Position numbers and translations under genes: made by a program. A DNA stretch of 46,815 nt, counting the filler, from Catajapyx aquilonaris (lineage: Eukaryota): the NCBI GenBank assembly GCA_000934665.2. It is 2 parts of 2 records of this genome, joined end to end, with 100 filler letters (N's around TTAATTAATTAA, not from the genome) between each part and the next. Parts side by side here need not be neighbours in the genome. Positions count along the whole stretch, not along the records: positions 23,460 to 46,815 come from JYFJ02005697.1; 1 more part is not named here. One strand, given 5' to 3'. Shown here one piece after another: positions 6,422-46,815 of this stretch. Below the pieces are notes generated by a model, which searched no databases, was not told where the DNA came from, and saw nothing but the letters and a program-made list of their open reading frames with translations. How positions within the stretch are numbered: the stretch's first letter is position 1; every line of letters starts with the position of its first letter.

Positions 6422-6515
6422 CTTTGTGTTTATTTTGTTATTTTATTTCGGAACGAACTTTGACGCTGTGTATTGCTCTGGGGTTATTTTAGAAAAAAAG
6501 AGAGAAAAAAGAACG

Positions 6516-6781
6516 TGTTGTAATATTGCATTATTATACAGATCAATAAACAAGTCTCTCAGAGGGGATTCCCACCTCCACCCAATAGCCAATCCTAGAC
6601 CAGGAAAGTTGCACAATGTTGCTTCATGCTTCCAGCCTTTCCTCCCCCATCACCCTTGCTTATGCCTCCCTTCCACCTAGCCACGCAGCAGTCTAAGAGA
6701 CTGGACCCAAAGAGAACAGATGTAACTCAGTCTGTGTATCACTTATAACATTCTCACTGACAACCAGGTAATGTTATAACA
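6516..6781 (+). repeat. 3' LTR (266 bp)
   Basis: Copy of 3513-3774 with a few substitutions and small indels, preceded by a polypurine tract. Confidence 0.97.
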
Positions 6782-23359: not shown

Positions 23360-23459
23360 NNNNNNNNNNNNNNNNNNNNNNNNNNNNNNNNNNNNNNNNN
23401 NNNTTAATTAATTAANNNNNNNNNNNNNNNNNNNNNNNNNNNNNNNNNNNNNNNNNNNN
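23360..23459. other. Scaffold gap with artificial stop-codon linker
   Basis: 44 N + TTAATTAATTAA + 44 N = 100 bp. Confidence 0.97.
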
Positions 23460-24949
23460 AGGCACTGACCTATGGTGTATTTCAAAAATACTGAGGGATG
23501 TTGGCTGTGAGGTCTGTACATGACTATATCGCACTGGGCTCTGTCTGCACCGCTCATGTGAAGCTGAGCCGACTATATATACGAGTAGTAGAACACCTGG
23601 CATTGCCTGGATGAAAAAGATTTCACTTGGTAGTCACCTGACAGCTGGGGGAAAAATTTCTCGGATGCCCTTGTAGCCCAAATCCATTGCAATTATGATG
23701 TTTCTCATTAATAACTAACCCTGGTGTACACTACCTGACTGGGAATTTTTACAGGGCTCCATATCTATATGCATTGGTGACAAGCAAACAGACTTCATGA
23801 TTATGTTTTCGATACTCACATTTCTCCTCCTCATGCCCCCTTGCACCAGCATCTTCATCCTCTTCTGCACTGGCCAGAAACTTCACCTTCGTTACATCCT
23901 TCAGGCAGTCCTAATTGCTGCCCTTTCCCCTGGGCTATAAGGCTTCGCACAATGTCATGGACAACAGCTTCATCTGAAATTGCATATAGTATTTTTATGC
24001 ACCCTCAGTGTGACCACTGCGTTTCTGTTTCATGTGGTTTTCCGGCCAAAACAATGCATTCATTGATGCTTCAGGGGTCAGTTGCAGGTCACCCATTGCC
24101 TTCCTACCTAGTCATTCCCCTGTGAATAATTTACATTCTGAGTGACGGGGATCGCGAATTTGACACATTTCATGTACCAGGCTACAGACTTATTTGCAAG
24201 GGCTGGCAGTGTCCATCAGGCCAGTGCCGGAAATATTATCATCGGCTCTGCCGAGAAGTACACCAGTAATGCGCACTTAACCGTCCAACATCCTTGCATG
24301 CAGGGCTGCGTCCACTGCTAGCGTGAAGGAACGCCCTAGGTACCCAAGCTTCACATGCTCATAGTGAGTCGCCATGCTGGGAGTCGCCGTGTTGGATTTT
24401 CTGTTGGATCGAACGGACGAACTATATCCCTCGGCCGGTGCAAGCGGTTCCCTACCGGTGACGTCATGTCACCCGAACCAAACAGGTCACCAAAGCAATC
24501 CTACGAAAGGCTGTCGCTCCCCTCAACAACAGGCCCAGAAGCGCGTAGGTCAGCGACAGTAGGGGAAGGTGGGGCAAAGCGGAACGGTTCAGGGATGTTT
24601 ATTTTTTCCCAATCAGATGAAAAACTTGATGGGATTGAATGTGCACAGCACAATACCTTCATGTCTCCTCTGTAATACCTGAAGTGATGAATTACAAAAG
24701 TCAATTACCGTAGGAGTTAGAACCTTATTTTTGAACCCCCACCAACCCGTTTCACAGGTCCCGCTCAAAATGCAAAATGGCTGCCTGAGTCGCTGTAGTT
24801 TCAAAAAAGTGCTGCCATCAGGTAATTAATGTGCATCATTATGTGGACAATTAGATGTAGCAAGATCCAGGAGATGGCACACACCGCACGGATATTTACG
24901 CCTGTGTTTCGCTTTGCCCTCCGTTTCACTTTGCCCCATTTTCCCCTAA

Positions 24950-26280
24950 TTAGGGGAAAGGGGGACAAAGTGGAATAGATAACGTTTGTATTTTATTTTA
25001 AGAGAGAGAAACATAGGTACCTTTGCTGTTATATGCCTATTTGATACCACCATGTGTAATACTAACGTACACGAATTGGTCATGGATCTTGAGGGAATAA
25101 TTTTGTAAGAGATGACGACATTTGTTTCACTTTGCCCCCATGTAGGGGGCCAAGTGAAATATGGCAGGGGGCAAAGTGGAATTTTACTTTCTTCATTGCA
25201 GGCGCTCTTTATTTTCTGAATACAGGTATTACAATGACCACGTTGTCTCAAACTATCATTATTAGAACTGTACCATTCCTCGCCGCAGCTGTACAACATT
25301 GCACAATCTGCCGATAATCTCATGGTTGAAGACAAGACTGGTATCATGGCCAATGATAGACATGCTTGTTCAGGCTGTAGGGACGCATGAATTTCACTGT
25401 TATTTCAGTTTCATTTATCGCTTGGGCCACATATATGGATTGCACTTGAGCAACATATTGGACTTGAAAGTAAATTTGATTATATCCTATGATACCAAAA
25501 CTGTGAATAGACCTGTTCATCATGATTGCTATAGCCTATTTCCAACAACTACTATAGCCTAGCCTACCTTCTTTTGATTCGATGTCATTTCAGTTAAAAG
25601 GAAATCATCCACTTTAATGTTTCCAACATCGACTTCTTTCATTGTCGTGCCAGGAGAATCCTCATCTTCAGCTGACGTGTCAGATGTGACTGACGAGTCC
25701 TCTGGGGCTGAACTATCCTCTTCGTCACCATCCGATGTGTCTGAGTTGTCTTCATCTAGGCCTACGCTCCCTATTTCTTTCCTGAGCCTTTTTGTTCCTG
25801 ATGCTGACTGACTCCCCGGAAAAAGATTTGCCGTTGCTGTAGTCTTGGCTGTCTTTGAGGCAGTCATAGCCTTTTGTTTCCGCAGTTCTTCAAGATATGG
25901 ACTTGATGATAGTATGGCAGTTCTTCCCCTCTTTCGGGAAGTAGACTTAGGCTGTCGTGTAGGAGCAACTGGTAGTGGCATGACGTCTTGAGGGGACAGA
26001 ACAGGCCTCGATGGGGTGAGGGAGTGTGAGGTTGAGGTGTGAAAGGATGTTCAGGTGCATTGACAGTTCCTGTGTCGCTGGTGTTAGAGGGAACAGGCCT
26101 AGTTTGTGTGTCAGGATTGGGTAAGGGCCTATCAGTTGTTTCTGCTGGAGCAAATAGGTGCTATTGGGAAAACATTTTCGTCAAAAGGACAAATCCCACA
26201 TTGTTAAAAGCCACTTATGGCATTTTCTGTTGTTGCTGCACGGAGATAGGCTCGACCAAATAGTGCACCGACATCATGAA
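24950..26280 (-). mobile_element. pogo/Tigger-like (DDE_1) transposon 3' fragment with terminus
   Basis: Minus DVGALFGRAYLRAATTENAISGF*QCGICPFDENVF, then PLPVAP...RKRGRTAILSSSPYLEEL; terminus AGGGGAAAGGGGGACAAAGTGG with repeated CACTTTGCCCC motifs. Confidence 0.7.
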
Positions 26281-27789
26281 GAGTCACAACTTTTCCTGGA
26301 TTATTTCTAAACCAGGATTTCACTTCTTGCTCATAGAAGGCACTGAGCTCCAAACTGTCAAGGTTGATGATATTTTTATTTATTTTATTTACCCCGTGAT
26401 CAGGTTAAGTACCTGTTTTGGGGGACACATTCCACTGACTGCGTTACATCAAGAAAGGTAATTTGTAATACATTTTAGTTACATGTAGTAAATTATAGCA
26501 CTTTAAAAGAAAGAAAAAAGAAAAGGAAAAGAAAGAAATATGTGTTTTTTTCTTTTGTCACCTTACAGTACACACATCGTTCTTTTTTCGACATTACGGA
26601 AAAACATGTATAAACAAAATATGTCTTTATTAACGATCATCTGATATATATAGTGGTAGTGCGAGGGGGGTAATTTTGGTATGTTGGACAAATATTGACT
26701 TCTGGGTAGTTCAAAGAATTTACAATGATAATATGATATGGAGACAGTATTATTACATTTTGCAATATGACACTCACATTTTTATAGAACGATTATACGC
26801 TCAGATCAGTTTGTTTGACATATTCCCTGGTCCTTTGCTTACCCCAAATTTGCAACCTCAGTTGAAAGTAGGCCTTTAGCACAACTGCATCCCAATCATG
26901 ACACATTCCTGCGACGGTGCTTGCACATATCTTTATGACATAGCTGTGAGATATTCAGGCAAAGGTGCCTTGACACTGGCTCACCTGCTTCCTTTCAATG
27001 CACAAAATATACTTTCCTTTCTTCAGTAAAGTGAATGCCTGCTCACTGCATTGACATAATGCTTCTGGCTTAATGGCTTTGTATGCTTGTAACGTACTAA
27101 CTTTGTGAATTTCATTCATACCTGAAGCACAAGGCATCTCAGCACAGGCCTCAGCATAGGCCTTCAATGGAAATGCTTCTTGAAAACTAAACACTGATTC
27201 TCATACGGTGTGCACTGCAAGCACCACGAGTAAATGGAGTGCAAGCTTCTCTCTAGTCACTTTCTGCAAACCGCACTTGCAGCCTTCCATATTTTTGCAA
27301 GGGGTAGTACATAATTACGTACCATACTGTACATAAATAGTAGGCTACATATACGTACATATGAAAAGCACAAGAAACGATGCGAAATGGCAATGTAGTG
27401 TTAGTGACGTGTGCAGCGACTTGGTATCCGACCCTTTACATTTTTTTTTGCGATACCTCATTACATAACATAATACACTACAATACTACATATCTTTCTG
27501 CCCCCTCACTTTGTCTCTTCCACCACATCTCCCCTGTCTTCCCTCTTCCACTGTCCCATTTTTCTTCCTCTTCCCTCGGTCCAGCCTATCCAACCCCCTA
27601 TCTTCTCCGGTGTCCATGAGTCGAGGAGCAGAAGGACTTTCTTCCTGTCATCTGGAAGACTGGGCCAGAAGCGCCTCAATTGGATTGGCTTCGCTACCTT
27701 TTTTTTTTCTTTTGTAGATATAGGCTACTTTACCAACACTCTGTAGTCACAAGTTCTTTTGCTTCCTAAAATCTTGGGTCTGCCAAAAT

Positions 27790-28410
27790 CGGAGGGCTGA
27801 GGTTCACAAATCCACATATCACTGTGACAATGTCATTTGCATGGGTGAGAAGTGTCCAATCCAGCTTCTTTTGCAATATGGCAAAACATTTCATGCGCTG
27901 TATGGCTCTTTCCACATGCACCCTTGCTCGGGCAATGCTGCTGACTCAGTTGCTCCTTTTTTTGCAAAAATGGAGGCTGCACCACACCAATTGCATTTAC
28001 AGAGCACACATCATTGATCCTGAAGCATTTATCAACCATCACTTTATCTACATATATGGCTCCATCTTCTCCACAATACCTGACAATTCAAATATCGCTT
28101 TATCGGATGCACGGTCACCATATACCTTGCTACGAGCCACTATTACTCCTGCAGGACTCACCCCCACCATAACCTTGATAGTGTTGCCTCCATAGTAATG
28201 TGAGTAGGTCAGCAACCTGCAGTTGATGCAGCCACACTGTTCTACAAACACTTCCGTGCAATCCAAAACCACTATAGTGTTGTTGTAGCATCGGTAGCAT
28301 TTTGGTAAATTGTTCATGATCTCCTTCTTGGAAGGCCCAGGTATAAAGCTTGTCAAAACCTCTGACATGGCCTTCTAAGACCTATCAAAAATATAGGTGC
28401 ACATGGAGGG
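27790..28410 (-). pseudogene. ISL2EU-type (PIF/Harbinger-related) DDE transposase fragment, frameshifted
   Basis: VVLDCTEVFVEQ, TYSHYYGGNTIKVMVGVSPAG, YGDRASDKAIF, MVDKCF, PPFL, ARVHVERAIQRMK. Confidence 0.85.
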
Positions 28411-29560
<1,150 letters not shown>

Positions 29561-30619
29561 CCCTAATAATTATTATTGTGACTGACGATGTTCGATGAAA
29601 GTAGGCTACCTTATTTTCTTTGCCTTAGCCCTTTTCCATTCTTGTTCACAACGGGGCCTCTTCTTAGCATCTGCAGGACTGCGTTCCTCAGCGGCTAATC
29701 CCTCCATGGAGCACCATTTGCAGTCCTAAAGCGCATGAAGAAACTGGCATCTGCCCGGTCTCCAGGCCTGCCTGCCACTGCGCGAGTCACCCGTGTCAGA
29801 AATGCGCAAACGCAGTACGGTATTACGTGGAGGATTTTGCAACTGGGTTCACAGGAACCTTTGTCCCACATGGAGGTTTTTGAAACCACAGATGGATTTT
29901 CAGCATTCATTACTGGTGCACATGGCGGTTTTCACTACTACATTTTTAACACATGGTAGGGTTTGATCTGAACAACAACGTGGCGTCGCTAACTCAGCAT
30001 CCATGGACAAAAAAAACTCACATTTTGTTGCAGAGTGTTATTCAGAAATAAAGGCGAACTCCCTGCCAAGTTTCCATATTTTGACAATAGGCTAACATCC
30101 ACTTGTTAATTTTTTCCTCATTATTGCAATGCTGAGGTAAGTGATGCATTGTATCCATGGAAGAGTGCCACCTTCACCTTCATAGCGCCCACGTTTAAAT
30201 TACATTCCAGTAAAATTAGATTTGTGGGGTCCATATGAACTCTTAAAATGGCCATCCTGTAAAGTTGTATAAATGGTCTATTCGCCCCTTTGGCTAAACA
30301 CCGACGATATATCAATACTGTATTTCAAAATCACAGCTACAAAAAATAACCGTTTTCATGTCCATAGACGCTACAATCAGCTGCAATGGAGATGACCGAA
30401 AATGAAACTGAACGGATGTTGAAATGTGGACTTGAACGAAACTGTTTCCAACTCTCAGAAGGTTTATGATGCCGTTATTACAACCTACGTCGGGTGGATA
30501 TGAACGAACATAACACATCCAATGTCAATCCGCTGTTGGCTCGATTTCGTTGAAAAGTGGAGATAACCGAAGATGATTCTCAGCCCGCGCTGTGCTGAAG
30601 CTTGAAGTTTCATATCCCT

Positions 30620-30860
30620 AAGCTAAGTTCTGAAACAAAATCAACTTGGACAAGTTTTTTCTAATACGCTTTGGCTGCAACTGCAACGTTTGCTTTTTAG
30701 CCATGTGGTGCAGACAAACTTTCGCATATACTTCTGGTCTTCTGCTATGACTTTGACCAATCTATGTACATGGTTATTATCCGGGGGGCTATCGAACATG
30801 TGATGGTACAATTCTGGAAAAACATTTTCCTGCATGTATCGTTCAGAACAGCTGTACATA
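30620..30860 (-). pseudogene. P-element/THAP9-like transposase C-terminal fragment
   Basis: HHMFDSPPDNNHVHRLVKVIA, then (frameshifted) KRIRKNLSKLILFQN. Confidence 0.65.
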
Positions 30861-31448
30861 TAGCAGGTACTATTCCCGACATCTGAGGAAGTCTCCCACT
30901 ATTTACTTTTATCATGTGTTTACAGCGTCAAATAGATGCCCTGGCTCAGTACTTGGATGAAATTGGCCTGTCTGTTAAAGGCAATGGATTTCTTAGAGTG
31001 AACTGCTGGGCCCAGGGCCCCGCCCCCAAACAAACTTCTCTCCTCCCTCCTCCCTCCTCCACAACTTCTCCCCCCCACCACTTTGGCACCATGACAACAT
31101 GTATCCCTCCGCCAGAGCCTTATTCCGATGGTGCTTATGCGCGCCGAAAATAAGTGAAAAGAAGAAATTCGAACACCGTTGCCGTGGATTCGAACGATGC
31201 TTCGAAATTACGCGGACACGGATCCCGATGCTCTTTTGTCTCTCGCCTTGAAAGTAGTCCCCATGTGGCAAGGTTGCTGATTTTAATTTTTCGCGTAAGT
31301 AAATAATAACGCTATTCTAAGTAATGCTTTAGCGTACATAAATTATGTCAGAACCAAATAATTGATATGCGTCGAATTCCTTTTTAAAATACACCGTCAA
31401 TTACATTTATGTATTTTCACCTGGCAACCTTCCTGTGACGCACGGTCA

Positions 31449-31548
31449 TACAGGCGATCCTATTGGTTCGCCCGGGGGGGCGTTTCTGTTCACTCTAATA
31501 CAGGTGATCCCATTGGTTCGCCCAGGGGGGCGTGTCTGTTCACTCTAA
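31449..31548. repeat. Tandem 50-bp duplication
   Basis: TACAGGYGATCCYATTGGTTCGCCCRGGGGGGCGTKTCTGTTCACTCTAA twice. Confidence 0.9.
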
Positions 31549-32089
31549 GAAATCCGTTCCCTATAATTTGGGGAAAAAACAAGTTCTGATTTTTAGAAAG
31601 GGTGGGGTTCTCTCTGCGAAAGAGAAGTTTTTCTGGAACGGAAGACCGCTAGTAATTACCAACAATTACAAATATCTTGGGAGTCCCCTTTCAGTCTTCA
31701 ACTAAGTAAGTTATGTTTACTTACAAATGGAAAGCAATTCCACTTCCTTTCTTGTACGTGTTTGTGCAGCCATATGCACAACACGTCGGCATTGTTGTGA
31801 GAGCAAGAGTACCGGTAGGTTAATAATATACGTGTATTGGCTACATGGCACGTAGGCCTGAAAGCCTATGGTGCACGCGCTGCCCCTCTAAAACTCTATA
31901 ATACACAACGAGAGGGGAGAGTGAATACTTCACACTGACATTACATTGCTAATCACACCGGCCGTAGGCTGACCATGCGGCAGACTAAGCACTGCAACAT
32001 GGCGGCCAATCAATGATGGCAGCCTCAGACGATTGCAGTAGTTCAGCTATCCATACTATATAGAGATCAGTGGTCCAGCTCCAGCTTGA

Positions 32090-32228
32090 AAGGTTGCCAA
32101 GACGTCTTCTTAGGCGCGGGCCAGAGACCCACTGACGCAGGCGGAAAGTAGCTCCCGGGCGGGGATCGAACCCGAGACCTTCCGCTCAGCAAGCCCAGAC
32201 GTTACCATCTCGGCCACCGCACCTCCCC
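32090..32228 (-). mobile_element. tRNA-derived SINE head (same family as 17085-17199)
   Basis: Shared AGGTTGCCAAGAC, CCCACTGACGCAGGCGGAA and ACGTTACCATCTCGGCCACC. Confidence 0.75.
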
Positions 32229-33419
32229 CATGATAGCTCATTTTGTACCACTTTTAGTTTCTTTATATAAAAATGTCCCAGTTGAAATGCATTACCTTCT
32301 GTGACTACAGCTGCTTCGTAGGTCGTGTTCAGTGTTTTTGCCCTTGCCTTATTTTTGAACTTTTTGGCAAGGGTTGCCCCGTGAATTTTCAGGAAGTTGC
32401 TGATGTCTGCCCTTTTAATGCAAAGAGCTTCTGCTTCCACCAGCAGCTGTGAAATAAATATATTCATTTCTTGTAAGGAGCAGTGAGGCATACACTGTGA
32501 TAATCCACTATTATTTGAATGATGGTATAATAACAGCTATTTTAATACGTCAAAAATGTTTCTTACAATGTTACCAGAAAAGGCAGTAAGTTTGCACTGG
32601 GAAAAGGTTGATGGCGATTGAGCATGCACAAATAATTGTATATTTAAATGTCTCCAGTAAATAATCTGACAAATAAGCCACGGCAATTTAATTCAGCACT
32701 AGTCATTTTGGAATTTGCCATTGACCCTTAATTTAATTTTGCAAAAAAAATCAAAGACATGACTGGGCACCCTCTGTCTGAATTGAAATGGAATCTGCAA
32801 ATAGCTGCCACCAGTAGTACCTGCTCTGGCATCTTCAGGGCAGGAAACTTCTCCAGGACTTGACTGACTGAATGGGTCTCCACAAATCATGACTGTCAGA
32901 AAGTGCAGGTTTAGGTGATATCACATTAACATATTTAACTGTATTTTGTGAGTGTGTGTGTGTGTGTCTCCATCAGGCTGATTGAGCCAATACAAATACT
33001 GACCTTCTCTGTGTCATATCTATGGGAACAAGCATGAATAGTTTGTGTTTGTGATGGGCAGTGGTTGTTACAACTTATTAGCCCAACAAAGCATTTTGTG
33101 AACAGTTATTATTACAGTTGACTCCAGATCTTCAACGGACCGCAACAATGTACAAATACCTAGAGATTCTGCTTTGCATATGCTTACAATGCACACTACT
33201 GCATACTGATTAATGAAGCTATCCACAAAAATGCAAAATTAGCTTATCCATAAGTTATGGAGGACCAAAAAAATCCTAACGTAACTTACATGTACAATAC
33301 ATACATTATTTATACACACATACATAATTTTTTCTGTGATGTTAATAACATAACACCTAGTTCATGTATTCATCAAGCATTGAATTCGCCATTTCATTAC
33401 TAATCACACATAAAAGAAG

Positions 33420-34620
33420 TTAGGTCTGGAAACGACTGTTAATTATGGATTGCCTGACCAGTTCTCCCCTCCTCCGCATCGACTCCCTTTCCCGGTGGCT
33501 CGTAGCAAAGATGGTGCAGGTTGGTTCGGGATGCTCTGGAGGCACTGGATCTTCACCATCAAGTTGTGGGTCTGGAAGCCCATGCTCTATGCACAAATTG
33601 TGTAACACTGCACAAGCATTGGCCACCAAAGCCACCTTGTTAAGGTGGAGATGCAGGGTGCGATGGCGGAGAAGGCAGCGAAACCTCGACTTGAGTACGC
33701 CAAAGCACTTCTCCACCAACGCACGCACCTTGCATAGTGCTTTGTTGTACCGGCCCTCCGGGGTCTCAGGTTCCGGATGATTGCTGACGGGCATCATCAG
33801 CCACGGCTCCAAGGGAAAGCCACTGTCCCCTATGTCAAATATGAAGTGGTTAGCACTCTTAGCAGCACATAAGGAAATAGTTACAGGCAAGACACTGGCA
33901 AGAGAAAAAAATATCCTAGATTATGGCATTTCAGTTGCAGGTATATTGCTTTCCAACTTTTACCGCAAACCTTGCAATAAAGTGACACAAGAAAGGTACA
34001 CAGCAGTCTAAGTGACAAATCATTGCTGGTTGAAAGTATTTACTAACTCAGCAACCAACCTTCACCTCCTAGGCCACCCTGCTGAAAGTGTTGCCGCAGG
34101 GAACAGAAGCGCCAAATGAATGCGTCGTGCACTGACCCAGGGTACTTCGCCGAGAACCACAAAATTTTGTACTTCACATCACACACCTGCAGTATTTTGC
34201 TACTGTTAGCACTCTCTCCACTTCATTGACAGGAATCTATTGACTAATTTACCTACTGCCAGGGCGTTTACAGAGTGATACCCCTTGCGGTTGACGAACA
34301 TGTGTTCCGGGGATCGTCCAATCCGAGGGGGAGCTATATGAGCAAGGTAACTCCCATCAATCAGCCCGACCACGCCAGGGAACCCAGCACGAGAGAACTC
34401 TTGCTTCATATTCCTGACTTCCTGTGGGGTGCGGGGGTATCTAATCCACTGCGGGGCTAGGTGATGGTCAATGGCTGTGGTGACAGAGGTTGCCACGTTG
34501 CTCACTGTTGACTGTGAAACCCCATGGTACAGGTTAGCCGCAACCTCTTCTTGACAGGACCCTGCGGGATAAAACCGCAGGCCAATCAGCATCTGCAGCA
34601 CATGCTTTAATTTCCATTTG
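33420..34620 (-). pseudogene. PIF/Harbinger (HARBI1-like) transposase, 5'-truncated, two introns retained
   Basis: GFPGVVGLIDGSY, FVNRKGYHSVNALA | VCDVKYKILWFSAKYPGSVHDAFIW | GDSGFPLEPWLMMP, VEKCFGVLKSRFRCL, ACAVLHNLC. Confidence 0.92.
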
Positions 34621-34641
34621 CATACACTTCTTGATCATACA

Positions 34642-35262
34642 CTACCGTAGGACCTGCCGCCATGTCTCCTCACTGATGAGCGTGACGGAGCAGCCAGAGT
34701 CTACCTCCATCAGCACCCGGATTGGCCCCTCCCCACCTTGATCCAACCGCGTGTGGAAGACGGTGCCCCACTCCTCCTCCTGGCATACCGCGTTGCAGTG
34801 TCCCCCTTTAGCCTCTGGGGTGGCGCTGCCCTGCCCGCCCTCCTGCCTCCTCCTCGCCAGCCACACCCTGCCCAGGTGGCCCACCTTATTGCAGAAATAG
34901 CAGACGGTGTTTTGGTGGCGGCAGGAACCGGCCGCATTGTCCCCTCCACATCGATAGCATGGTCCGCCACCCTCCGCAGCTGGCGATGACGCTGCTTGGT
35001 CCTTCTTCTTCAGGTCAGGGCGGGTGGCCGGCGCCCCAGGCGGAGCCCACACCGCAAAGACCTCCCCCTTTGTAGATACGTCCAGAGCCCGCAGTTCACT
35101 GGTATGCTTGGCTGCCGTCTCCACTGTTAGGGCCATCTCCAAGGCCTTCTTGAATTTCAGCTCTGGTAACTCCAGCATCCGCCGCTGTAGGTCCGGGTTG
35201 CCCAGGCCAAAAACCAATCTGTCACGAATCATGCTCTCCAACCCAGACCCGAAGCTGCAAAG
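34642..35262 (-). pseudogene. gag: Ty3/gypsy (Mag-like) gag-protease fragment, no LTRs
   Basis: IRDRLVFGL, CYRCGG..C, CYFCNKVGHL, MEVDSGCSVTLIS. Confidence 0.88.
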
Positions 35263-36541
35263 AGCTGCAAGAGCTGCAAAGAGCTGGCAGCATGTACTTG
35301 AAGTACACTAAGGATAGTTTTTTGATGAGCTCCTGCACAAAATTCTCATCAAGATGCACAGGTATTACAACTATGGACTGATCCACACTGCAAAATGCGA
35401 TCAAGTCACATTTCTTGAGGTTCATAACCGCCATGCCCAACTGTACCTGCCCATAATAGGCATGTCTCTTTTTCAGTTTTATGTTTTCCCCCTCACGCAC
35501 AAGGTATGATAACTGACTCTCCCCTGACACATACTCAGATGCACTTGTTGTTTCATTTGGGACAGGACATTTGATTTCAATGAGAGAGAGTGGCTTACCA
35601 TCCACGAAAACCACTCCATCTGGAGACACACCAAGCCTTGGGGCTTAGGGAGAGATAACAAGTCCAACCTGCTGCACATCACTCTGTGTTTCTTTGCTGT
35701 ACACCTCTCGGGCAGTACCTTCATACCTCTTACCATGATTTGTGCTGGCATTGCCAAAACACTGCCTCTGATTCCACTTTTTTGTTCCAGTCTGCCCCTC
35801 TTCTCTTGCCATAAGTGTACAGTTCGTAACACACTGACCCAGTAATTCGCACCCTTCTCATTTCCCTCCAAAGGTCATTGTCTTGTGTCAGAGTCCCTGT
35901 GCATATTTTCTTACATTCATCCACACTTTTAACAACTTTTCCATTATAAAACTGTAAGTGCTCTTCAGCAGTGTCCACTTCCCCTCCACTCCCACTGTCC
36001 ACTGTTACATTTCCCAAATGAGAATTTGTGGTGTACAATCATAATATGTTTGAACAAGTTCATTACAATGTCATCCGATGGTGTCGGGGAGACATGCGGT
36101 GTACTTGGTGTACTATCCTGAGTTTCAGTCAGTCGTCCTCTTACATGCTTCGCCAATGCCGATTCAGGACAACCTTGTATAAGAATGTCCCTGAATAGGC
36201 TGTGTTGCTCCTCAGTCACTTCTGGCCGCACTCTCTTTGCTGGGACGTGACAGAGATCTTTAATTTTGGTGGGTTTGTAAAGGTCACTGCTAGTGTTCTT
36301 GAGCTTTCCCCACTGTTTTTGGAGGTCAGTGTAACTGAAGTCTTCCAGTGCCATTACGGTTGTCCTGTGTGGACAACACATAATATTAGAAATAGACATC
36401 ATGTGGTGAATACAACAGCACACGTGAGAAGACTACTTATGCATCATGGGCAGGGCGTTGCAATAAATTTTCCAACTCCTAAATAATTTATCATTCATCT
36501 CGGCAGCTACTCTGCCCTTACGTGAACTACATCATATAATT

Positions 36542-38193
36542 GAAGGGGTCGGTGCAATACTGCCCTAACCCACCAAGTGACACAAATTGAGTTTCGCGCA
36601 CTTCCATATACTACTCTCAAATATCTAATAAAGTACACTGAGATTGTCCAGTTTCTGCCATTTGTTGGCGAGAAATCAAACAATGTTTTTATTGCTCCAA
36701 GGTTATGAATGCCTTTTCTGCAGCAAAACCGCCCTAACCCTCCGTCTTCAAATATTGCAGCGCGCAGGATGCAGCTGCGAGCTGCTGTGTCTCACGAGTT
36801 GGGCTTAAATAGTGAGCTTTTGCCTGATGACACCGATGTGGATGAGAGTACCTAAGATTCAGAGTTCGATCCTGATAATGATGATGTGCAAAGTAGTAGT
36901 CCATTGCAGCATAATAATAATAATAATAATAATGATGATGATGATGATAATAATGATAATAATAATAATCGTAGTTGGGTCATTCCATGTCAAGACAGAC
37001 AACTTGGTGGCTCGACCATCTCATAATTTGATATAAAAATCATTCAAGTGTTGCCAAAAATAAAGTTAAGAGCCTCCCAGGTGAAAATCCCACGGAGATA
37101 TGGCAACGTCTTTCAGCAACAATGGAGCCGGAAGGACCATTTATTTCAGGCGAGGTTATTGTTGTACCCTCTTGTTCATATTATATCAAATGAACTGTTG
37201 TGAGATGAGGAACATTATTTTTGTGGCAACGTGTTTAACCTAGATTGTAAAATAAAAATGCTAAAAAAATCGAATTCTTGTGCAAAAGGACACATTTCAA
37301 TGGTCGAATGTCATTGTTAAATACATGCTAAGCGTGTGGAATTAATATGGTAGGTACATTGTCATCTGATCATCAGTAGTCATTTCTACTGCAGGACAAC
37401 ATCAAGGTCAAGCAGACTTGGAGATAATAAATCTGAAATGTCGGAAAAAGCCCTCTATAGGCTACTCCACGTTATTTGATGTTGCGAGTGAACCATTCAT
37501 GGTAAGTGAACAGTTCTTATACCGCTATGTTATGCATGAAAAGACGTTTCTGCGATAACTTAAAAATTGACCCAGCCCCAAACTGAGAAAAATGACCCCA
37601 AAGATGACCAAATTAGTGGAAAACAGACATTTCAGAAGTTTTATTTCCAAGACTGCTTGACCTGTGATGTCCTTCGACAGTATAGTAATGATCAGATGAC
37701 AATGTATACCTACCGTATTAATTCCACACCCTTAGCATGTGTTTAACCATGACATTGGACAATATGAAATGTGTCCGTTTTGCTCAATAATGCGATTTTA
37801 TTTTAACATTTTTATTTTACAATCTAGGTTAAACCAGTTGCCACCAAAATGTTCCTCATCTCACGACAGTTCATTTGATATCATTTATATGAACATTAAA
37901 CTAACTTGTGATACGTTCTTGACCAATTTAGTTCGCATTACAAGTTGGGTGCAATACTGCCCTAACCCTTTTTTTCACACGCGGCCACATTATTTTGTTC
38001 ATTCTTAGAGTGGGTGGTGCATCGTCATCATCATAATAGCACGTTAATGTTCCTTATTAGTGCCTTGTATATTGGGGTAGAAATGAAAATTGTCCCATGG
38101 AAAATGTGATTTATGGGTCATCTCAAACTTTCAAATGCGTTTTTCTCGAAATCAGGTTTGGGAGGGTTAGGGCAGTATTGCACCGACCCCTTC
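36542..38193. mobile_element. Non-autonomous TIR element with AATT TSD (Sola1-like), inside the YqaJ intron
   Basis: Perfect 30-bp TIR GAAGGGGTCGGTGCAATACTGCCCTAACCC; flanking AATT at 36538-36541 and 38194-38197; internal copy of the TIR core at ~37948. Confidence 0.88.
36977..37900. mobile_element. Nested foldback element with ~210-bp diverged inverted arms
   Basis: ~37172-37378 is the reverse complement of ~37683-37895; begins GGGTCATTCCATGTCAA, also seen at ~46457. Confidence 0.75.
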
Positions 38194-39180
38194 AATTATA
38201 AATGCACCAATTTTTGGGGCATGTAGTTGTGCAGTGAAGTGGATTCTAGTGTAACCACACAAGTGGTGCAAAGTGGTAGCATAGTATAAAATTTATATGA
38301 CCTATTCACTTGCAACAAGGCATACTTGCACATGCCGGAATTGCCTGCTTTGGATGTACAGGTGATGTTTGGCGGTAGCTGTTGGACAGCGTCATCCCTC
38401 TGCAGTACCACCTCGATCTGGTGCGGCTTTCCCGAGACGTTGCTTGTTTGCAAGCACAGCGAAACGATCTTGCGTGTCGCCTCCGTCCTCTCCAAGAAAC
38501 CACAGCAAATAATGTGCTTGCCCTTAACCACGCGTTCACCATCCACCAGGCATCTCTGCTTATCGCCCACGTACTGTAATATGTCCACAAACCCCACTTC
38601 CCAAGTGGAATCCATGCCCCACCGCTGGTTACGCTTACGGCCGCCTTGCTAATACAACGAACTAGTACCGTCTCCCGTCGGATGGTAAAACCCTATATTT
38701 GAGTTTTCAGCAACTTTTCAGGAAAAAATATTTTCATACAAACCCTTCCCGTTCGGTTCCTATAACAGTTGCAACGAGTATGATAAGTGTCATGGGGTAC
38801 TTTTTAATGCTGAATCCAATCATTTGGACGAAATCTCGCTGAAAGCAGTAGTTTGACCTCAGTGGAGTATATATTGTTTTACCATCTTGCTTATTGAACT
38901 CACATTTTGGTAAAACACCATATATACCATTTGTTCTGTTTTACCATCGTGCATTTCAGTTAACTTAATATGCCGGAACATGTCAAACTGCACAATACAC
39001 ATCGTATAATTACCTGTAGTCCTGCTTTACACTTTCGCATCACTTACAGCACGTCTAGGGATGTACTGGAGGAATAATAATCACCATGAAGCAATAAATA
39101 ACATAAGCCGTGTTAAGGTTTGAAGAGTCTGGACATTGCAGCCATTTTATTTCTGTATAATTTATACGGGTCCGGGGTCC

Positions 39181-40170
39181 TCACAAAGGCCAAGACTGAC
39201 GTATGAATATTTTGATCATTGCCGGTTCGTTTCGTTTATTCGCAATGATTCCCCAGGTCAGTGCTCTCCTCGCTTTCAGGAAGAGACATTCAAAACTGCC
39301 TCCTGGTTTCAGGAATATTCTATAGTCCTTGTCGTGGAAGCTGGTTTTGTACCTCAATGAGAATGAATGTCGCTGAAAGGTGATTTCGCACATAGACGAC
39401 AAAAGTGGCATAGCGTCGTTCTTTTCTTTTCTAACTCTGAATGTACTTTCAAAATTGTACATCTCTTTGGCCGTGAGCATGACAGCACTGCAACCTACTG
39501 CAGACTCCTTGCACACATTGCAGAAGTCAGTCACGTCGTACACATTACGGACGCTGCGTAGTTTTTGCTCTATCTTTCCATGAATCCCATCTGCAGCCAT
39601 GTAGGTGTGGCCTGGTACGAGGCAACGTAATGAGATTTCATTGGCTGCTATTCTGCTGCTGTTGACTGCTGCCATCAAAGCTGTAAAAAGGACGTAATTC
39701 TTGTTTTGGGCTGAGCAATTATCCAGCCATAATAATGATGATGATCTCCTTGTCACGAACAGTGTCCAGGAATCTTATGAAAGCGCTGGCAATGTCCGTT
39801 GCACTCCTCCCTGCTTCAGCTTCATGCCAAACAACACACAAGTGCTGCTTACTACTTGGGGCTGAATTTTTTGACATATTAGCAAAAGTCTCGTTAACTA
39901 ATACCAGGCGAGACGCAAAAAATGATGATTTCACATCAGGCATCCTCGGTAAAAGCACTACTTTCTGCAAGTCAGCTGCGTACACACAAATCTTGGGAAG
40001 GTTAATGGCCGAGTCGGAATCATACTGGGCTCGGGCTTCAGACACCTGCAGCATGTGAATCCTCTTGTTTTCTTCGCTACCTGGATTCATTTCATAGGAC
40101 ATACATTCCTGACACTTGTCTACGTTCGGAATGTTGAAGTAAATGTTCATGTCACGAAGCGTTCTCCTAT
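39181..40170 (-). pseudogene. Sola1-like transposase fragment, frameshifted
   Basis: DKCQEC, ADLQKVVLLP, WHEAEAGRSATDIAS, WLDNCSAQNKN, PGHTYMAADGIHGKIE. Confidence 0.75.
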
Positions 40171-40171
40171 A

Positions 40172-40380
40172 CAGGGTGTATCGGAACTCGACCATAAGCC
40201 ATGTGCCAATGGCATAAGGGGCACCAGAGCATCATTATATGTAGAGGCGTCATCATGTCTAGGCAGCCACATCACGTAGATAATTGATCATTTGCGAAGT
40301 AGCGATTGCGCTTAAGTGCGATTGTAGAATAGCAGTGCCAAGTGCCATTGCTCTTACAAATTAGCAGCTATTTCGTTACC
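40172..40380. mobile_element. Half of a MITE related to 10925-11327
   Basis: TA|CAGGGTGT...; shares ATGTAGAGG.GTCAT and AGATAATTGATCATTTGCGA..TAGCGATTGCGC. Confidence 0.75.
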
Positions 40381-40519
40381 CGAATCCGCCGGAGGCTGAT
40401 TGCGCAGGTTCATATAACAATAATAATATGCACCCATGCATGAAATGGAATTAGACAACCCCTCGCCCTCAAAAGTCGACAAAATGGCTCCCCAATTCAT
40501 GCGGAATCATTTAGTTCAC

Positions 40520-42660
40520 TTACAACTCGGCAAGGCGAGCCCATTCCATAGATTGTACAAAGTAACCAATGAGTGTTAAGGACAAATTGCAATAATAATT
40601 GTGACACACATTGTTCATGATGTTGACAGTCACGGATGACACCACACATTTTCCAGAAACGTACAGGTGGCACACATTTAACTGCAAAATGTACAGAGAG
40701 ACTTGCACTTGTGTGTAGTATCTGTGTGAAACCTTTAATGTCCAACTACCTTCACCATCCTGCTGTAAATATTCTAGGTTGCTAATACCACCCTCCACAA
40801 CACTCTGCTTCTCACACCTGCTGGGACACTTGATCTCCAAAAGAATCATCCCCTCCTCTGTGAAGACCAAGCCGTATGGGCTGCAGCAAAGCCATGGTTG
40901 TTTTGAGGAAATGTACACTCCAATGTGCGCGACACAACACTTGTACTTGGTTTTGTACTCAGCCAAGGCCACTGGCTTCATGATAATTCCATACCGCATG
41001 GATTTTGTGCACACATTTTTTGCATGCAAAAACCTTGCTGCCAGGAGGTCAAAGGATTTCCTCCTTGTCTTGATGTTGTGACCTCAGTAGGGAACACAAG
41101 AAAAATCGTGGGTTCAGTCAAGACAGTGTTTTAATAGCAAGAATAGGAAAAAGGGTATGACGAGTGGGCGCAACCTCCCACCCGGGCCGATCAGTTACCT
41201 CCCCGAAGGGAGAGAGACCAAAAAGCCTTGATTCTATAACGGGAGCAGTTCATATAGGTCGGAACCAAGAGGGGTGCATGATGGGATACCCTCGTCTCTA
41301 CTAGTCAGACGTCAGGCTGGAGATCTACTAGGGTAGGGAAATGGGTATACCGTATACGTACATCAAGGACAAAGTGCACAATGGGCATATGTAACAGGAT
41401 TCTCATCAGACGTAAATACAGATGGAGATGATACACAAAAGAAACTTAGGGCGTGCCACCTGTTCCCCCAGAGGGTAAGGTCACAATGTCATGAGCCTTA
41501 GACCCCGCTGACACTCTCACCTTTCTTTCCAATTCCCATGATGTCTGGTCTCGTGTCATCACTGCAACTCTTCGTATGTCGTCAGCACTCAGGGAGATCT
41601 TCGATGCATAGTAGTCTTGGTTGGAGCTTGATAAACTATTGAAGAAGTCATGACGAACCAACTTCACTTTTGTTCCACACTCCGACTGAACGGGGGCGTA
41701 CAAGTGATAACTCACACCTGCACTACATCCTTCCTGCAATAGATCTAATGCTTGGTCCATCACTTTAGTTTCTGCAGCATCTGCGGCTCTTGCAATGAGG
41801 CTGTCTATGACTTGAGACACAACAATTCTTGCCTCGCTCTCACACTCGGCCTTTAAAACTTTTGACAATGAGCAGTCTATTCCAGAAACTACTTGTAGGA
41901 TTTGATGCGCAGTCCAGTCTGATGTCGTGTGAACAGGTGGTGCAGGAGGTGGCAGGTGATGGATTTCTGACAGGGTTGTCCCCTTCGCATACTTCCCCAG
42001 CTGAGTTGCAGTTGGCATCCCCCATTGTCTTGCTTCTGTCGTAACAGACTGGTCGCGTTCCAGGTTCACCGCATTCATTGCTGCTGCTGCTACATGTTTG
42101 CAGGTGCCACATGCTCCACCCTTGCACGAACAGTGTCCACTGACAATGTTCCTGTCACAGTCAAGCTAGAGTTGGAAATTATAAATGTTTACAAAAAATG
42201 GGGTTTCTCTTGTACAAAATGTCTGCATGATAACCCAGAAATAGCCAGTCCGCCAGTTAATTGTAGTTAAAATGTGGCGCAGCAGCTCTGAAGTGTCAAG
42301 GGTCCTTTACTTATATTCCATTATTGTTACTGCGAGCTTGCATCACTTGTTGTTTGAAGTCAAATGAAAGTACATTTACTTGCATGTTTTCCAGGCTAAC
42401 TCAAACTGTGGCCACAATAAGTGGCTCCTGGCCAGATCTCTGGCCAAAGCTAGGTCGTTGTACTGTACAGTAATGCGGAACCTGTAAGGAGCCTTGTTGA
42501 CAGACGTTTCCGGTACGCAGGTACCGGACACGGTGCTGTCGTCTCCGAGCGAAGGAAATTCCTCCTTCAGATGCCCGACATGCCCGGCATTGTACAGGTC
42601 CAGGCCGTGCTTAAGGACTCCAGATCGAAGATGCCCCCGTACATGAATGGGTCGAAAGCC
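40520..42660 (-). pseudogene. Second SWIM plus YqaJ-like gene, split by a solo LTR
   Basis: GHCSCKGGACGTCKHVAA (~42130-42085), WELERKVRVSAGSKAHD|IKTRRK, SMRYG, PWLCCSPYGLV, LEIKCP, YYTQVQ. Confidence 0.85.
41077..41485 (-). mobile_element. Solo LTR (409 bp)
   Basis: TGTGACCT...AGGTCACA termini; 4-bp TSD ATGT; excision restores the YqaJ reading frame. Strand inferred only from ATTAAA on minus. Confidence 0.85.
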
Positions 42661-43037
42661 AACGGCGATCGTGACTACCGGGGGCGGCCCTGATAGTCGG
42701 CCCTGAAGAATTTCTGGCGTCTCCCATTCCCAAAAAACCTTGGGGCAGCCCAGGGGCGGCCTCTGATCACTGCGGTAGTGGTGTCAAGAGCTACCTACAC
42801 TAGTGAAAAGGGCGGATCGGCACTGAAGTGGGAAAAACGAGCCCAAACGTTTACGCCCGATCCGCCGCCAGGAGGCAGTGCAAGCCATCTTAGACCTCGG
42901 CCAGCGTGCTCTCGAATAGGAATGATAAGATCCTACAAAATTTTGAACTGCGACAAGTCCACACTAAATGTCAACTGCTCACGTTGCCGCAGGGAACCTC
43001 CACACTCCGTTTCAAATAACGCACTCTCACTTCTTCA

Positions 43038-43235
43038 CTATCCATGGGTGAATGCTTTTGGGAATGCCTGGCCTACTAATTCAGCTATGTCATATATTGA
43101 CAGGGTTTTGCCACAATTCATGTTCATCCATGCACTGCATGCCTGATTATAATAAGTCTTAAATGGGCCAAACACTGTCCTATCCAGAGGTTGGAGCTTG
43201 TGGCTAGTGTGTGGAGGCATGGTAAGCAGGACAAT
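43038..43235 (-). pseudogene. pogo/DDE_1 transposase fragment
   Basis: LTMPPHTSHKLQPLDRTVFGPFKTYY. Confidence 0.88.
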
Positions 43236-43607
43236 TCGCCGGTTTATTACTACGTAGTTCTAACTCCACTTTTGATGAAGCTGAGACATTTGAAGTCAAA
43301 GTTTGGACAGCACGACAATTGGACCATGAACATTGAAATGTAATGAGTTAATTTTTGCACTACCGTGGCTTACATACCTTACTCATATTTTGTGTTTCAC
43401 TGTCCCAATGTCATTGTCGTTGTCTGTAACAGCAGCAACAATGGTGGAGTTGGAACTTTTGAAATTACCTATTTGAATTTTTCCAGAATCACGAAAGTCT
43501 AACTCCAACCATTTCATGTTTCTGTCGGGAGTACAGGTATAAATAATAATACTGCTATCCTGCAGAACAATGTTGTTTATTTCTAGCAGAATACAATCAT
43601 GCCATTA

Positions 43608-45265
43608 TTATTTTTTCGTTTTCTTGCCAGCCTTTCCAAGTATGGATGTGTAGAAATCTTTGTCTACTTTGGGCATGTACTTATACAATGATCTTACATC
43701 CTTAGCCTTGTCCTGCGGGACACTAGGAACAGGCATGTCATGGATCGGGATTTTCAATTGCGAGAACTCCTTTGGCTGCTTGGTTTTATTTTTCCTGCCC
43801 TTTGGTGTGATACAAAATGGGACAGTAGCTACTGGACTGAAGGGATCGTGGGACGTCTTGCACTGCATCTGACTATCTGTGTGAATGATATGCTTAGCTG
43901 TCGCATAGGGAACTTGTGAAAAATCCAGAGGCATATTTCGTGAACTATCCTTGTAGTCCTTGAAATCGCTGCGGTGCATGCGGCAAACAATATACTTCTT
44001 AACACTTCGTACATTCAGTATGGCTCGTACCATTCCCAATGGACTGAAAATTTCCTGCTTTGACAGGCAGTGCTCAATGACCGAATGCATTGAGTCAACT
44101 TCTTGCACGCATGAATGACCTGGTTGTTGGTACTTTTGTTCAATGAACTTGACTTGCGGATTGCTCTGCATGAACAGCAGCAGTGCCGTTGACATGATGC
44201 GATTTTTATTTTGCGGCACACATGAATCCGACCACATGATTATGCGTGAAATATGTGGTTTCCCTGTCAATGCCTCTGTGAGAAGTCTAACTACAGCACT
44301 CGCAATTGCATTTCCTGATCTATCTCCTATGCCTTCCCACCACAGACAACAATAACCTTGTTTTGCCCCAACATCGTAGCCTGTCAAGTTGAACACTGAT
44401 ATCTTCCTTTTGTAATAGAAGCTACTGGTGTTACTTTTTGGACTCTGTAAGACTTTCTGGAGGTCAAAGACAAACAACAAAGTATCCTCATTTATACTCT
44501 CCTTGTCCGCACACTTAGCCTGCCTAGCATGGCCCTTCTCTGAGATATGTTCCTTCCACTTAGCTTTCAAATCTGTATCTGATTGTTCAGATGCATTCCA
44601 TTCCATGCAATGATCGCACTGATCCTTTTTTCTGGTATGGAAGGAAATGTTGAAGTTACTCTTTAGGATTTTCCTGTAGCTGTGGACCTTCACAGCGACT
44701 CGGCCTAGCTTTGCACATTTCTCTTTGTACAAATCATACATCTTAGGAAAGGAAAGTTGGTCACTAAGGTACTCCTTACCTGTATCCTGGCGGCAAAAAT
44801 GAGAGGAGACTCTGGGAAATGAGTTCATGTGCTCAATGACAAATTCTTTGTCTGCAATAGGCAGAGATTTCTTCGCATGCTTCCCTTGCTGACTTGGACA
44901 CGGTGTACCTGTGGTGCTGTTCCTATGCTTGTGAGCATTGTACACTCGAGTTTGGGATACATCAAGAGTGGCCAAGTAGAATGGCTTACATACTTTGATG
45001 CTGTCTCCAGTGTCAGCAGCTAAAAAAGAATATTGAAAGGAGAACTGTCTCCTTGATGTGGGGCGTTTAACATCTCTTTCGCGAACCTTCTTCGCCTTTC
45101 TTGTTGTGTTCAGGAAAATTTGAATTTTGTCTGGGTTTGCCAGACTCCAAAACTCTGCATGAATTGCTGCTCTGCCTGCACTGTCTATTCTCTCTGAGCA
45201 TTTGAACCTACAGCTCTGTGCACACCTATTAACATCTGGCACTTCCCTGGCTTTGTGCAGCTTTC
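43608..45265 (-). mobile_element. Sola1-like transposase, uninterrupted ~550-codon frame lacking its native N-terminus
   Basis: VCKPFYLATL, SSHFCR, KKDQCDHC, FDLQKVLQSP, YYKRKI, WWEGIGDRSGNAIAS, WSDSCVPQNKN, PGHSCVQEVDSMHSVIE. Superfamily label from motif recall. Confidence 0.8.
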
Positions 45266-46236
45266 CTCTCTCAGCGTTGAGACACATAGGTACTATGGGC
45301 GCCAAAAGAATTGACCGGAGTTTATGGGTATATAGCGCCATATACCCATCAAATCCGGTCAATTCTTTTGGCGCCCATAGTACATCTTGCATACTGTGCA
45401 GATAACCCTGGAACGCCCTTTACATCCCTCTAACGTCTAACCGACAACGGCTGGCGTGCTTGTCATCCAACATCTGAGGAAGGTGCATGAGGCTTTTACT
45501 CTTCCTCTTTTCCCTGCTCGGCTTAGGAATGACCTTCCTTCTTACATCCTCTACCTCACTATCGCTGCTCACATTGCTCTCATCCCTCCCCACACAATAC
45601 ATTAAGGCCTCCGCCACATGAAAACGAAATTGCATCAATTTCATTACATTCTTACTTTGCACCCCCTGATTCACTTGGTCCCGCCTGTATTGCCCCCATG
45701 AATTCGCAAGTGCCAGGTCTGCAAAATGTAGAATCAACCGTACCGTCCGTTTTTTTTGTCTTATTTTTGATACGGTAGTGACTGATCATGCGATCCGCTA
45801 GAAGGCTAGATCAACCCCCCCCCCCCTCCCCCATGTGGCTATTGTACTTTTTTACCACCAATGGTCTGGTAACTTTAATGATTTTTTTTTCCTTCTTACT
45901 CCACCTTGTGCAAAATCTGTCGGGTTTTTCCCCATACCTGTGGACCCCAGAACAATCCCTTTATTGTCATACCACTTTGTGACATTCACCTCCCCGTCAG
46001 AGCGTACAGATTGCTCAATAGCACCTCGACCTTTTTTGGCCATTTCTTTATCGGTTCCTAGCTTTGTTTCTTTTGGTATCCGATTTTTAGCCATAGTTCC
46101 AGTCCCTGTGTATCCCTGTTCCTTCAACAAATCTAAAAGCGGAATTGATGTGAAAAATCTATCAATGAAAATGTGTGTTCCTGGGGGAGCAGTACGACTC
46201 AAATGCAAAACAGCTCCACTTGCCACACCCGGGTAA
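45266..46236 (-). pseudogene. piggyBac (PGBD-like) transposase C-terminal fragment, frameshifted
   Basis: IFIDRFFTSIPLL, GTGTMAKNR, KWYDNKGIVLGST, DLALANSW..YR, cysteine-rich tail SRCR...ICTVCKMYLC. Confidence 0.9.
45293..45380. mobile_element. 88-bp hairpin mini-MITE with TA TSD
   Basis: TA|CTATGGGCGCCAAAAGAATTGACCGGA...TCCGGTCAATTCTTTTGGCGCCCATAG|TA. Confidence 0.9.
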
Positions 46237-46456
46237 TTCCAGGACAGTTCAACCAGATCATAACACCCCTCATTTTTTTATTTAAACGAAAATTGGCGCA
46301 CAGTACTTTAATCACAATAGTAGCGTAAAACTAATTTTTGTTTCCCCCTACTCTGTCAAGGTCAAGCGTGAAGTCAAGGTCAAAAAAATGTATGGAGTGA
46401 AAATAGGTCTCTGCATTTCTTGCCATATCTCAGGAACGACTGGATCTATCGCAACA

Positions 46457-46815
46457 GGGTCATTCCATGTCAATTCACCGAGCCCCCTGACCCTTGGGTT
46501 GTCAGATTTTGACGAAAATCGGCGAATCGCTTTAATTACGTCTTTCAAAAATACCATTTGAGCGGTTTTGAGATTTACCCCCCCTCCCCGGAGATAGGCC
46601 CACCGAAAAAAACGTCCTTTTCGGAAGGTAGGGTTTCAGAAATCGGTCATATCTCGTGAACCAATTGAGCTACAGATGTCATAGACCGCTCCCTTTGAAG
46701 AGATTCGAGAGCCCAATATCACTAAGGATTGAAAATTCGCATTTTGACTTTTTTGAAAATTTTGTCCCATTTTCAAAATTTCAATTTTTTTTAAAAAAAA
46801 ATCCGCCTATTTTAA
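46457..46815. mobile_element. Probable terminus of a long-TIR DNA element running off the window
   Basis: Starts GGGTCATTCCATGTCAA, identical to 36977. Confidence 0.45.

Follow-up and report, generated by a model that had tools for sequence, protein, structure and literature searches.

A 23-kb contig of Catajapyx aquilonaris with all orientable transposon fragments on one strand, a candidate uni-strand piRNA source locus

Introduction

A flam-like cluster of Aedes aegypti is reportedly a uni-strand arthropod locus giving rise to PIWI-interacting RNAs (piRNAs). Transcription of piRNA clusters is described as one-directional for most arthropods surveyed (excerpt of PMC9175491). Here we analyse a transposon-rich contig of Catajapyx aquilonaris (JYFJ02005697.1), in which every fragment of assignable orientation reads on the minus strand, as a candidate locus of this kind. 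The contig occupies positions 23460–46815 of the window, by which we mean the whole stretch of 46,815 bases analysed, two DNA pieces artificially joined. All coordinates are those of the window.

The closest described systems are flamenco and the flam-like clusters (van Lopik et al. 2023, PMC10643416, in excerpt). Like them, the contig is a dense graveyard of transposon fragments with near-complete strand polarity, and, as in flamenco, one long putative transcript would read antisense to its fragments. The published model, as excerpted, invokes selection for antisense insertions in promoter-driven clusters (PMC10643416). Specifically, sense insertions into flam-like clusters are thought to be selected against, partly via poly(A) signals (PMC10643416, same excerpts), and we propose the same for the contig. 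The flam-like clusters described there are enriched in Gypsy/long terminal repeat (LTR) elements, whereas about 11 of the 13 orientable pieces of the contig are DNA-transposon genes and one is an LTR gag. The flam-syntenic clusters span 227–1,085 kb in these excerpts (PMC10643416), while the contig shows 23 kb and is bounded by contig ends. For flam, the excerpted text gives a mapped promoter, expression in the soma and piRNAs (PMC10643416); the contig is described here by its sequence. The "unusual composition" attributed to the contig in an earlier note on this DNA is a contrast with Drosophila flamenco.

The clusters of Trichoplusia ni and Rhodnius prolixus, as described in excerpts of PMC5844692 and PMC11614815, resemble the contig in that they are arthropod loci rich in mixed transposon remnants; one-strand transcription has been seen in these clusters. 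In the top clusters of Rhodnius prolixus, mariner-like DNA transposons are among the commonest elements (PMC11614815, in excerpt). In the uni-strand clusters of T. ni, 57.1% of insertions and 79.7% of nucleotides are antisense (PMC5844692, in excerpt), whereas the contig is fully polarised. Its complete polarity thus exceeds that of the T. ni clusters and of the unpolarised Rhodnius clusters, in so far as the excerpts describe them (PMC5844692, PMC11614815). The clusters of both species were defined from small-RNA data in these excerpts, whereas the contig is a candidate from its sequence.

Transposons in introns of long genes provide a further likeness (excerpts of Zhang et al. 2011, PMC3088655), namely that antisense copies accumulate since sense copies disturb transcription. 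The intronic bias reported in these excerpts is moderate and strongest for LTR elements and long interspersed nuclear elements (LINEs) near exons (PMC3088655), whereas the bias of the contig is complete and concerns mostly DNA transposons.

Results

Strand polarity of the contig

The region under study is a complete contig, 23,356 bases long and free of internal N. It starts exactly at the joiner (23360–23459; 44 N, TTAATTAATTAA, 44 N), a linker with stops in all six frames that is not genomic. The left piece is not a neighbour of the contig, and its relative orientation is arbitrary. Because the joiner lies between the two pieces, the left half of the window is invalid as genomic context for the right half, and vice versa.

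The contig is an old graveyard of transposons, and all of its pieces that can be oriented have the minus strand as their sense strand. All stop-to-stop open reading frames (ORFs) of at least 38 amino acids (aa) overlapping 23400–46815 were scanned against Pfam on both strands, comprising 223 short ORFs of 38–59 aa (125 plus, 98 minus) and 142 ORFs of at least 60 aa (76 plus, 66 minus). Nine of these ORFs exceed the Pfam curated cut-offs, and 9/9 read on the minus strand; no plus-strand ORF passes. Specifically, DDE_Tnp_4 is found at 27769–27945, 28051–28374, 33423–33920 and 34046–34222, YqaJ at 35648–35857 and 40523–41083, DUF7869 at 39184–39774, DDE_1 at 43041–43259, and the piggyBac domain DDE_Tnp_1_7 at 45855–46277. 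On the plus strand of the contig, the sole Pfam rows are sub-threshold and unrelated to transposons (Vp20_capsid, E = 0.0038; Glyco_transf_22, E = 0.004). The scan sees the plus strand too, since it picked up RVT_1 at 3031–3540 and 6761–7012 of the left piece. No host-gene Pfam match was obtained in the contig for the scanned ORFs of both strands; the statement of the earlier note that no host gene lies among the fragments thus holds across the whole isolated contig.

With BLASTP and a protein database search added to the Pfam scan, the minus strand carries about 12 coding pieces and one head of a short interspersed nuclear element (SINE), about 13 orientable pieces in all, and the plus strand carries none. 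This is the strong strand polarity of fragments that characterises flamenco-like clusters. The two-sided probability that all pieces fall on one strand by chance is 0.0039 for 9/9, 0.00049 for 12/12 and 0.00024 for 13/13, the last being the chance that the earlier note had put forward. That note had listed 13 minus-strand fragments. We placed 12 of the 13 on that strand, nine firmly and three weakly, and did not recover the P/THAP9-like piece. The one-strand observation is therefore confirmed and somewhat strengthened.

The asymmetry is also visible in measures that are free of annotation. There are 11 minus-strand ORFs of at least 150 aa (2,403 aa in total) and no plus-strand ORF of this length, and the counts for ORFs of at least 100 aa are 25 minus and 14 plus. 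Stop trinucleotides are balanced (1052 versus 1053). Pyrimidines prevail on the plus strand in 17 of 23 1-kb bins of the contig and in 11 of 23 bins of the left piece.

The earlier note had granted that the independence of the pieces is imperfect, and we judge the pieces to be well independent. Long direct repeats are absent from the contig, and the one direct repeat is a 50-nt tandem pair. Pieces of the same family are distant from each other, with identities of 26–33% for the DUF7869 pieces, 34% for the YqaJ copies and 30% for the pogo pieces, and the two DDE_Tnp_4 elements cannot be aligned with each other. Distant copies of the same family, together with the absence of long direct repeats, indicate separate arrivals rather than duplications.

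The contig also shares with flamenco-like clusters a dense multi-family array without host genes, with about 12 coding fragments in 23.4 kb. The families represented are PIF/Harbinger, pogo, hAT (weak), piggyBac, DUF7869-type, YqaJ-type, LTR gag, a SINE head, and elements resembling miniature inverted-repeat transposable elements (MITE-like). Read along the minus strand from 46.3 kb down, with capital letters distinguishing copies, the order is piggyBac, DUF7869 C, pogo B, SWIM + YqaJ B, DUF7869 B, a 1.67-kb element, YqaJ A, gag-protease, Harbinger-type B, the SINE head, a 592-bp inverted-repeat element, a DUF7869 A stub abutting the C-terminus of hAT, Harbinger-type A, and pogo A. Decay within the array is very uneven, ranging from one 603-codon open frame to multiply frameshifted remnants.

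Polyadenylation signals and transcript feasibility

Poly(A) hexamers, counted as AATAAA plus ATTAAA on each strand, are distributed unequally in the contig: the plus strand carries 10 and the minus strand 37 (binomial p about 1e-4). In the left piece, the corresponding counts are 33 and 42. Runs without any hexamer reach 7.7 and 6.6 kb on the plus strand of the contig, as against 2.3 kb at most on the minus strand. In simulations under an order-3 Markov model, 24.5 ± 4.8 hexamers are expected on the minus strand, and the observed 37 are reached in 0.3% of simulations; minus-strand hexamers are thus enriched. With few hexamers on the plus strand and many on the minus strand, the contig could yield a long RNA from the former but not from the latter; the scarcity of plus-strand hexamers is at most an indirect hint of one long continuous precursor.

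A uni-strand piRNA source locus as the favoured reading

In our assessment, the most likely reading, held with a confidence that falls a little short of even, is that the contig forms part of a uni-strand locus from which piRNAs originate. From the polarity, the mix of unrelated families, the independence of the pieces and the hexamer asymmetry, we infer a transcript, its processing and selection on orientation. Starting at a promoter beyond the contig, a long RNA polymerase II (Pol II) transcript would follow the plus strand. Because all pieces are on the minus strand, this transcript would be antisense to each of the embedded transposon pieces. Its cleavage would yield piRNAs by which PIWI proteins are directed to sense transposon messenger RNAs. 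Insertions in the opposite orientation would be lost, either because they yield useless sense piRNAs or because their poly(A) signals end the precursor early. The earlier note had read the locus as an antisense library. The structural half of that reading stands, in that a mixed, mostly cut-and-paste patchwork lies entirely on the minus strand, so that a plus-strand transcript would be antisense to all of it; the functional half is a prediction.

Several points weigh against a piRNA source locus. Strand polarity alone does not mark a piRNA cluster. In excerpts of the respective papers, 57.1% of insertions in the confirmed uni-strand clusters of Trichoplusia ni are antisense (PMC5844692), and the uni-strand clusters of Rhodnius are unpolarised (PMC11614815). 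The Gypsy/LTR enrichment by which flam-like clusters are recognised in the excerpted text (PMC10643416) is absent, as LTR elements account for one of about 13 pieces. By the rough measure of contig depth given below, few copies with at least 90% identity appear to exist elsewhere, so that the targets of the "library" would be chiefly families that are low-copy or extinct. Targeting by piRNAs requires close matches. The depletion of plus-strand hexamers is not significant in the simulations described above (10 observed versus 15.3 ± 4.2 expected; 10 or fewer in 12% of simulations). In addition, the hexamer asymmetry may largely consist of the transposons' own signals and is no proof of selection.

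We therefore regard the locus as a reasonable candidate of a known kind, not as a discovery. If piRNAs are made here, it would be a clean, fully polarised cluster outside Drosophila, and one with DNA transposons, not retroviruses, as its targets. The position of a cluster and its direction of transcription would also have been predicted from sequence only in a non-model arthropod. A broader proposal, which we consider speculative and rather doubtful, is that a set of uni-strand clusters in the flamenco style, fully polarised and made mainly of cut-and-paste DNA transposons, may exist in this genome, with the contig among them. In that case, orientation selection in piRNA clusters could be strong outside Drosophila and without any tie to Gypsy-type endogenous retroviruses, and it would be able to act on DNA transposons.

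Alternative explanations

The alternative that survives best, which we consider possible but on balance unlikely, is that an ordinary long plus-strand Pol II unit, such as a large intron, an untranslated region or a long non-coding RNA, encloses the contig, without dedicated piRNA production. Sense insertions would bring poly(A) and splice signals and be purged by purifying selection, and antisense insertions would remain. Such a unit predicts exactly the 10 versus 37 asymmetry of poly(A) hexamers and, if introns are large, requires no exon or host gene in 23 kb. Introns also fill far more of a genome than piRNA clusters do. At an antisense probability of 0.75, a run of 12 would occur in about 3% of regions, and a reader who flags extremes would meet some of these; but 12–13 of 13 is extreme for cut-and-paste elements, and the likelihood is 0.004–0.006 at p = 0.65. 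Moreover, none of the plus-strand ORFs scanned in the contig matches a Pfam family above cut-off. That intronic transposons are biased towards antisense is well documented, above all for LTR elements and LINEs, but the excerpted text describes the bias as moderate, and this mammalian study omitted DNA transposons from its orientation analysis (PMC3088655). If the contig is an intron after all, a polarity of this degree would suggest that selection against sense transposon insertions is unusually strong in this genome.

It is improbable, in our view, that the polarity has no function and reflects either chance co-orientation sharpened by ascertainment or a neutral process that keeps orientation, such as deletions in an originally biased patch. 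Ascertainment is a concern, as the reader flags the most extreme of many windows, and p is 0.0039 if only the nine firm ORFs are counted; with 12–13 pieces, however, p falls to 0.0002–0.0005. Truncated pieces abut truncated pieces at many junctions, including those of DUF7869 A with hAT near 29200 and of piggyBac with DUF7869 C near 45420. Much of the structure was thus made by deletions, which leave orientation unchanged. On the other hand, the asymmetries in ORF length and base skew run across the whole contig.

Very improbable is a single large composite or capture-type (Helitron-like, Pack-type) element that gathers fragments in its own orientation, which would account for co-oriented, truncated and abutting pieces from many sources, but helicase/Rep, polymerase and other hallmark genes of giant elements were not found in any frame among the ORFs scanned, the coding pieces are at about single-copy depth with the array itself not repeated (by a rough measure), and the uneven decay between pieces argues for separate arrivals. 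The small remainder of probability beyond the piRNA source locus and these alternatives stands for an origin that none of them explains.

Coding fragments

The lower end of the array begins with pogo-type fragment A (25562–26404, minus). Its ORF 26207–26404 is homologous to the DDE_1-bearing ORF of pogo B (BLASTP E = 5e-9, 30% identity over 40 aa) and is blank in Pfam, while ORF 25562–26050 is an acidic tail without family assignment. Pogo-type fragment B (43041–43259, minus) carries DDE_1 itself (Pfam E = 1.8e-7, profile positions 100–138 of 177).

Two transposases of the PIF/Harbinger type are recognised by DDE_Tnp_4. Transposase A (27769–28374, minus) is split by a frameshift, with Pfam E values of 7.1e-13 (profile 1–69) and 2.8e-10 (profile 112–158). 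Transposase B (33423–34634, minus) is spread over three frames, with Pfam E values of 6e-16 and 6.3e-8. The pieces named "ISL2EU" or "Harbinger" in the earlier note correspond to Pfam DDE_Tnp_4, and its "Sola1" pieces correspond to Pfam DUF7869. A full-text literature search returned no paper on DUF7869/PF25273, and "Sola1", like "ISL2EU", remains a label.

A hAT-like C-terminal fragment (28356–29296, minus) is a weak assignment. Dimer_Tnp_hAT matches its ORF 28356–28742 below threshold (E = 0.019; 15.2 bits versus a cut-off of 21.4), and its ORF 28955–29296 has no meaningful relative in the PDB. Next to it is DUF7869-type fragment A (29157–29543, minus), a weak to moderate assignment of an N-terminal part only. 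Its ORF 29157–29348 matches residues 241–272 of the 603-codon frame (BLASTP E = 5e-4). DUF7869-type transposase fragment B (39184–40231, minus) lacks about 250 N-terminal residues and is identified by Pfam (DUF7869, E = 3.6e-7) and by BLASTP to the 603-codon frame (E = 3e-12 and 1e-6).

The single LTR-retrotransposon fragment (34645–35307, minus) encodes gag and protease (PR), and its two CCHC knuckles precede a DSG motif of the protease. It is the "Mag" gag of the earlier note, a name kept here as a label. It matches the LTR gag-PR ORF 4170–5240 of the left piece (BLASTP E = 1e-9) and zf-CCHC (E = 0.02), and the DSG motif was seen by eye.

YqaJ-type nuclease fragment A (35225–36432, minus) gives Pfam YqaJ E values of 1.1e-4 and 0.014. 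ORF 35225–35644 is the remainder of its domain and matches YqaJ B (BLASTP E = 3e-15). Fragment A may continue upstream at 38199–38648, split by the 1.67-kb element at 36535–38200. By eye, ORF 38199–38648 looks like a decayed SWIM-like N-terminus, with weak BLASTP similarity (E = 0.088 and 0.017); BLASTP gave no match between it and ORF 42379–42783, and a database search among longer proteins was also blank. Element B (40523–42165, minus) combines a SWIM motif, CxC...CxH, seen by eye in ORF 41449–42165, with a YqaJ nuclease (Pfam E = 1e-12). A literature search on YqaJ/SWIM transposons yielded nothing useful.

The piggyBac transposase fragment (45423–46277, minus) is 5'-truncated. DDE_Tnp_1_7 is matched at profile positions 195–279 of 349 (E = 8.5e-9), and the C-terminal ORF 45423–45785 was recognised by eye.

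Two features proposed in the earlier note were not recovered. The P/THAP9-like fragment could not be located, with no Pfam row at E ≤ 1 and no match to the hallmark motifs; for a candidate ORF at 30644–30898, look-ups in the PDB and the Atlas returned no usable relative (best Atlas score 0.82). The possible plus-strand LINE remnant at about 30900–30985 fared no better, as ORF 30887–31150 gave no Pfam family at E ≤ 1.

The 603-codon DUF7869 frame

DUF7869-type transposase C (43611–45419, minus), identified by protein database search and alignment, is an uninterrupted frame of 603 codons. It has 113 relatives with identities of 25–44% and E values down to 1.6e-118, many of which carry PF25273. 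The relatives are distributed patchily over beetles, flies, moths and a mussel. All of the columns invariant among nine relatives are kept (44/44), and the basic N-terminal block of the relatives is absent. One DNA contig from a sequencing run, at the lowest summed depth of the region, spans 43547–45316 with no differences. A near-perfect palindrome of 94 bp (45290–45383, 47 + 47 nt, 94%, no strand), which adjoins the piggyBac end and is high-copy, with a depth of 2330, sits at the 5' end of the frame. Transposase C would be either a young insertion or a sequence held open by selection.

Non-coding repeats and copy depth

Depth is given throughout as the summed depth of contigs from a DNA run aligned to the region, which provides no copy number and is a rough sign only. 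By this measure, the coding pieces have the lowest depth (about 26–100), while the inverted-repeat (MITE-like) elements and the SINE reach thousands. One run of unspecified kind, available as contigs without strand or level, covers mainly the high-copy repeats, together with a few low-depth pieces on the low-copy stretches 38827–39587 and 40657–40843.

The element at 32091–32231 (minus) looks like a SINE in the same orientation as the coding pieces, with a head resembling a transfer RNA (tRNA). The head is on the minus strand of 32231–32150 and contains an exact box B, GGTTCGATCCC, and a box-A-like sequence, GTGGCCGAGATGG, as judged by the box A/box B consensus. ARAGORN and Rfam did not call a tRNA at this head. 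It lies in the highest-copy bin of the region, with a depth of 18907 and loose ends at 32091 and 32228.

The remaining repeats have no assignable orientation. The largest is a non-autonomous element of 1.67 kb (36535–38200) with 40-nt terminal inverted repeats (98%), which is high-copy, with a depth of 2267–5627, and contains a nested fold-back of about 700 bp at 37180–37884. A second high-copy element, of 592 bp (30975–31566), has 29-nt inverted repeats and a summed depth of about 1000–1800, and contains the 50-nt tandem pair. A small inverted-repeat element with 28-nt arms (86%) at 24560–24975 is beside a 52-bp palindrome at 24924–24975. Rfam gave no family at gathering score in the contig, and at E ≤ 1 only generic hairpin matches on palindromes; specifically, the palindromes at 45290–45383 and 24924–24975 show sub-threshold matches to generic microRNA hairpins. 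The two palindromes, of 94 and 52 bp, are probably remnants of tiny fold-back transposons.

The right end of the contig (46286–46815) is a very high-copy repeat with a summed depth of about 12,000. The assembly probably stops at 46815 because of this terminal repeat.

The left piece of the window

The left piece contains tektin exons at 8936–10357 (minus; Pfam E down to 1.6e-22), two EF-hand exons at 19519–19991 (minus), and an LTR-retrotransposon remnant at 3031–7672 (plus). These features were considered as context for the contig and dropped, because the joiner puts them on another piece. The EF-hand exons resemble a non-muscle myosin essential light chain, and the first coding exon of this gene was not found in the left piece. 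The LTR remnant has matches to reverse transcriptase (RVT_1), aspartic protease and integrase, and sits in a GC-rich stretch (58% GC in 4001–6000). Its reverse-transcriptase pieces flank the gag-PR and integrase ORFs on both sides, which suggests that the remnant is nested or rearranged.

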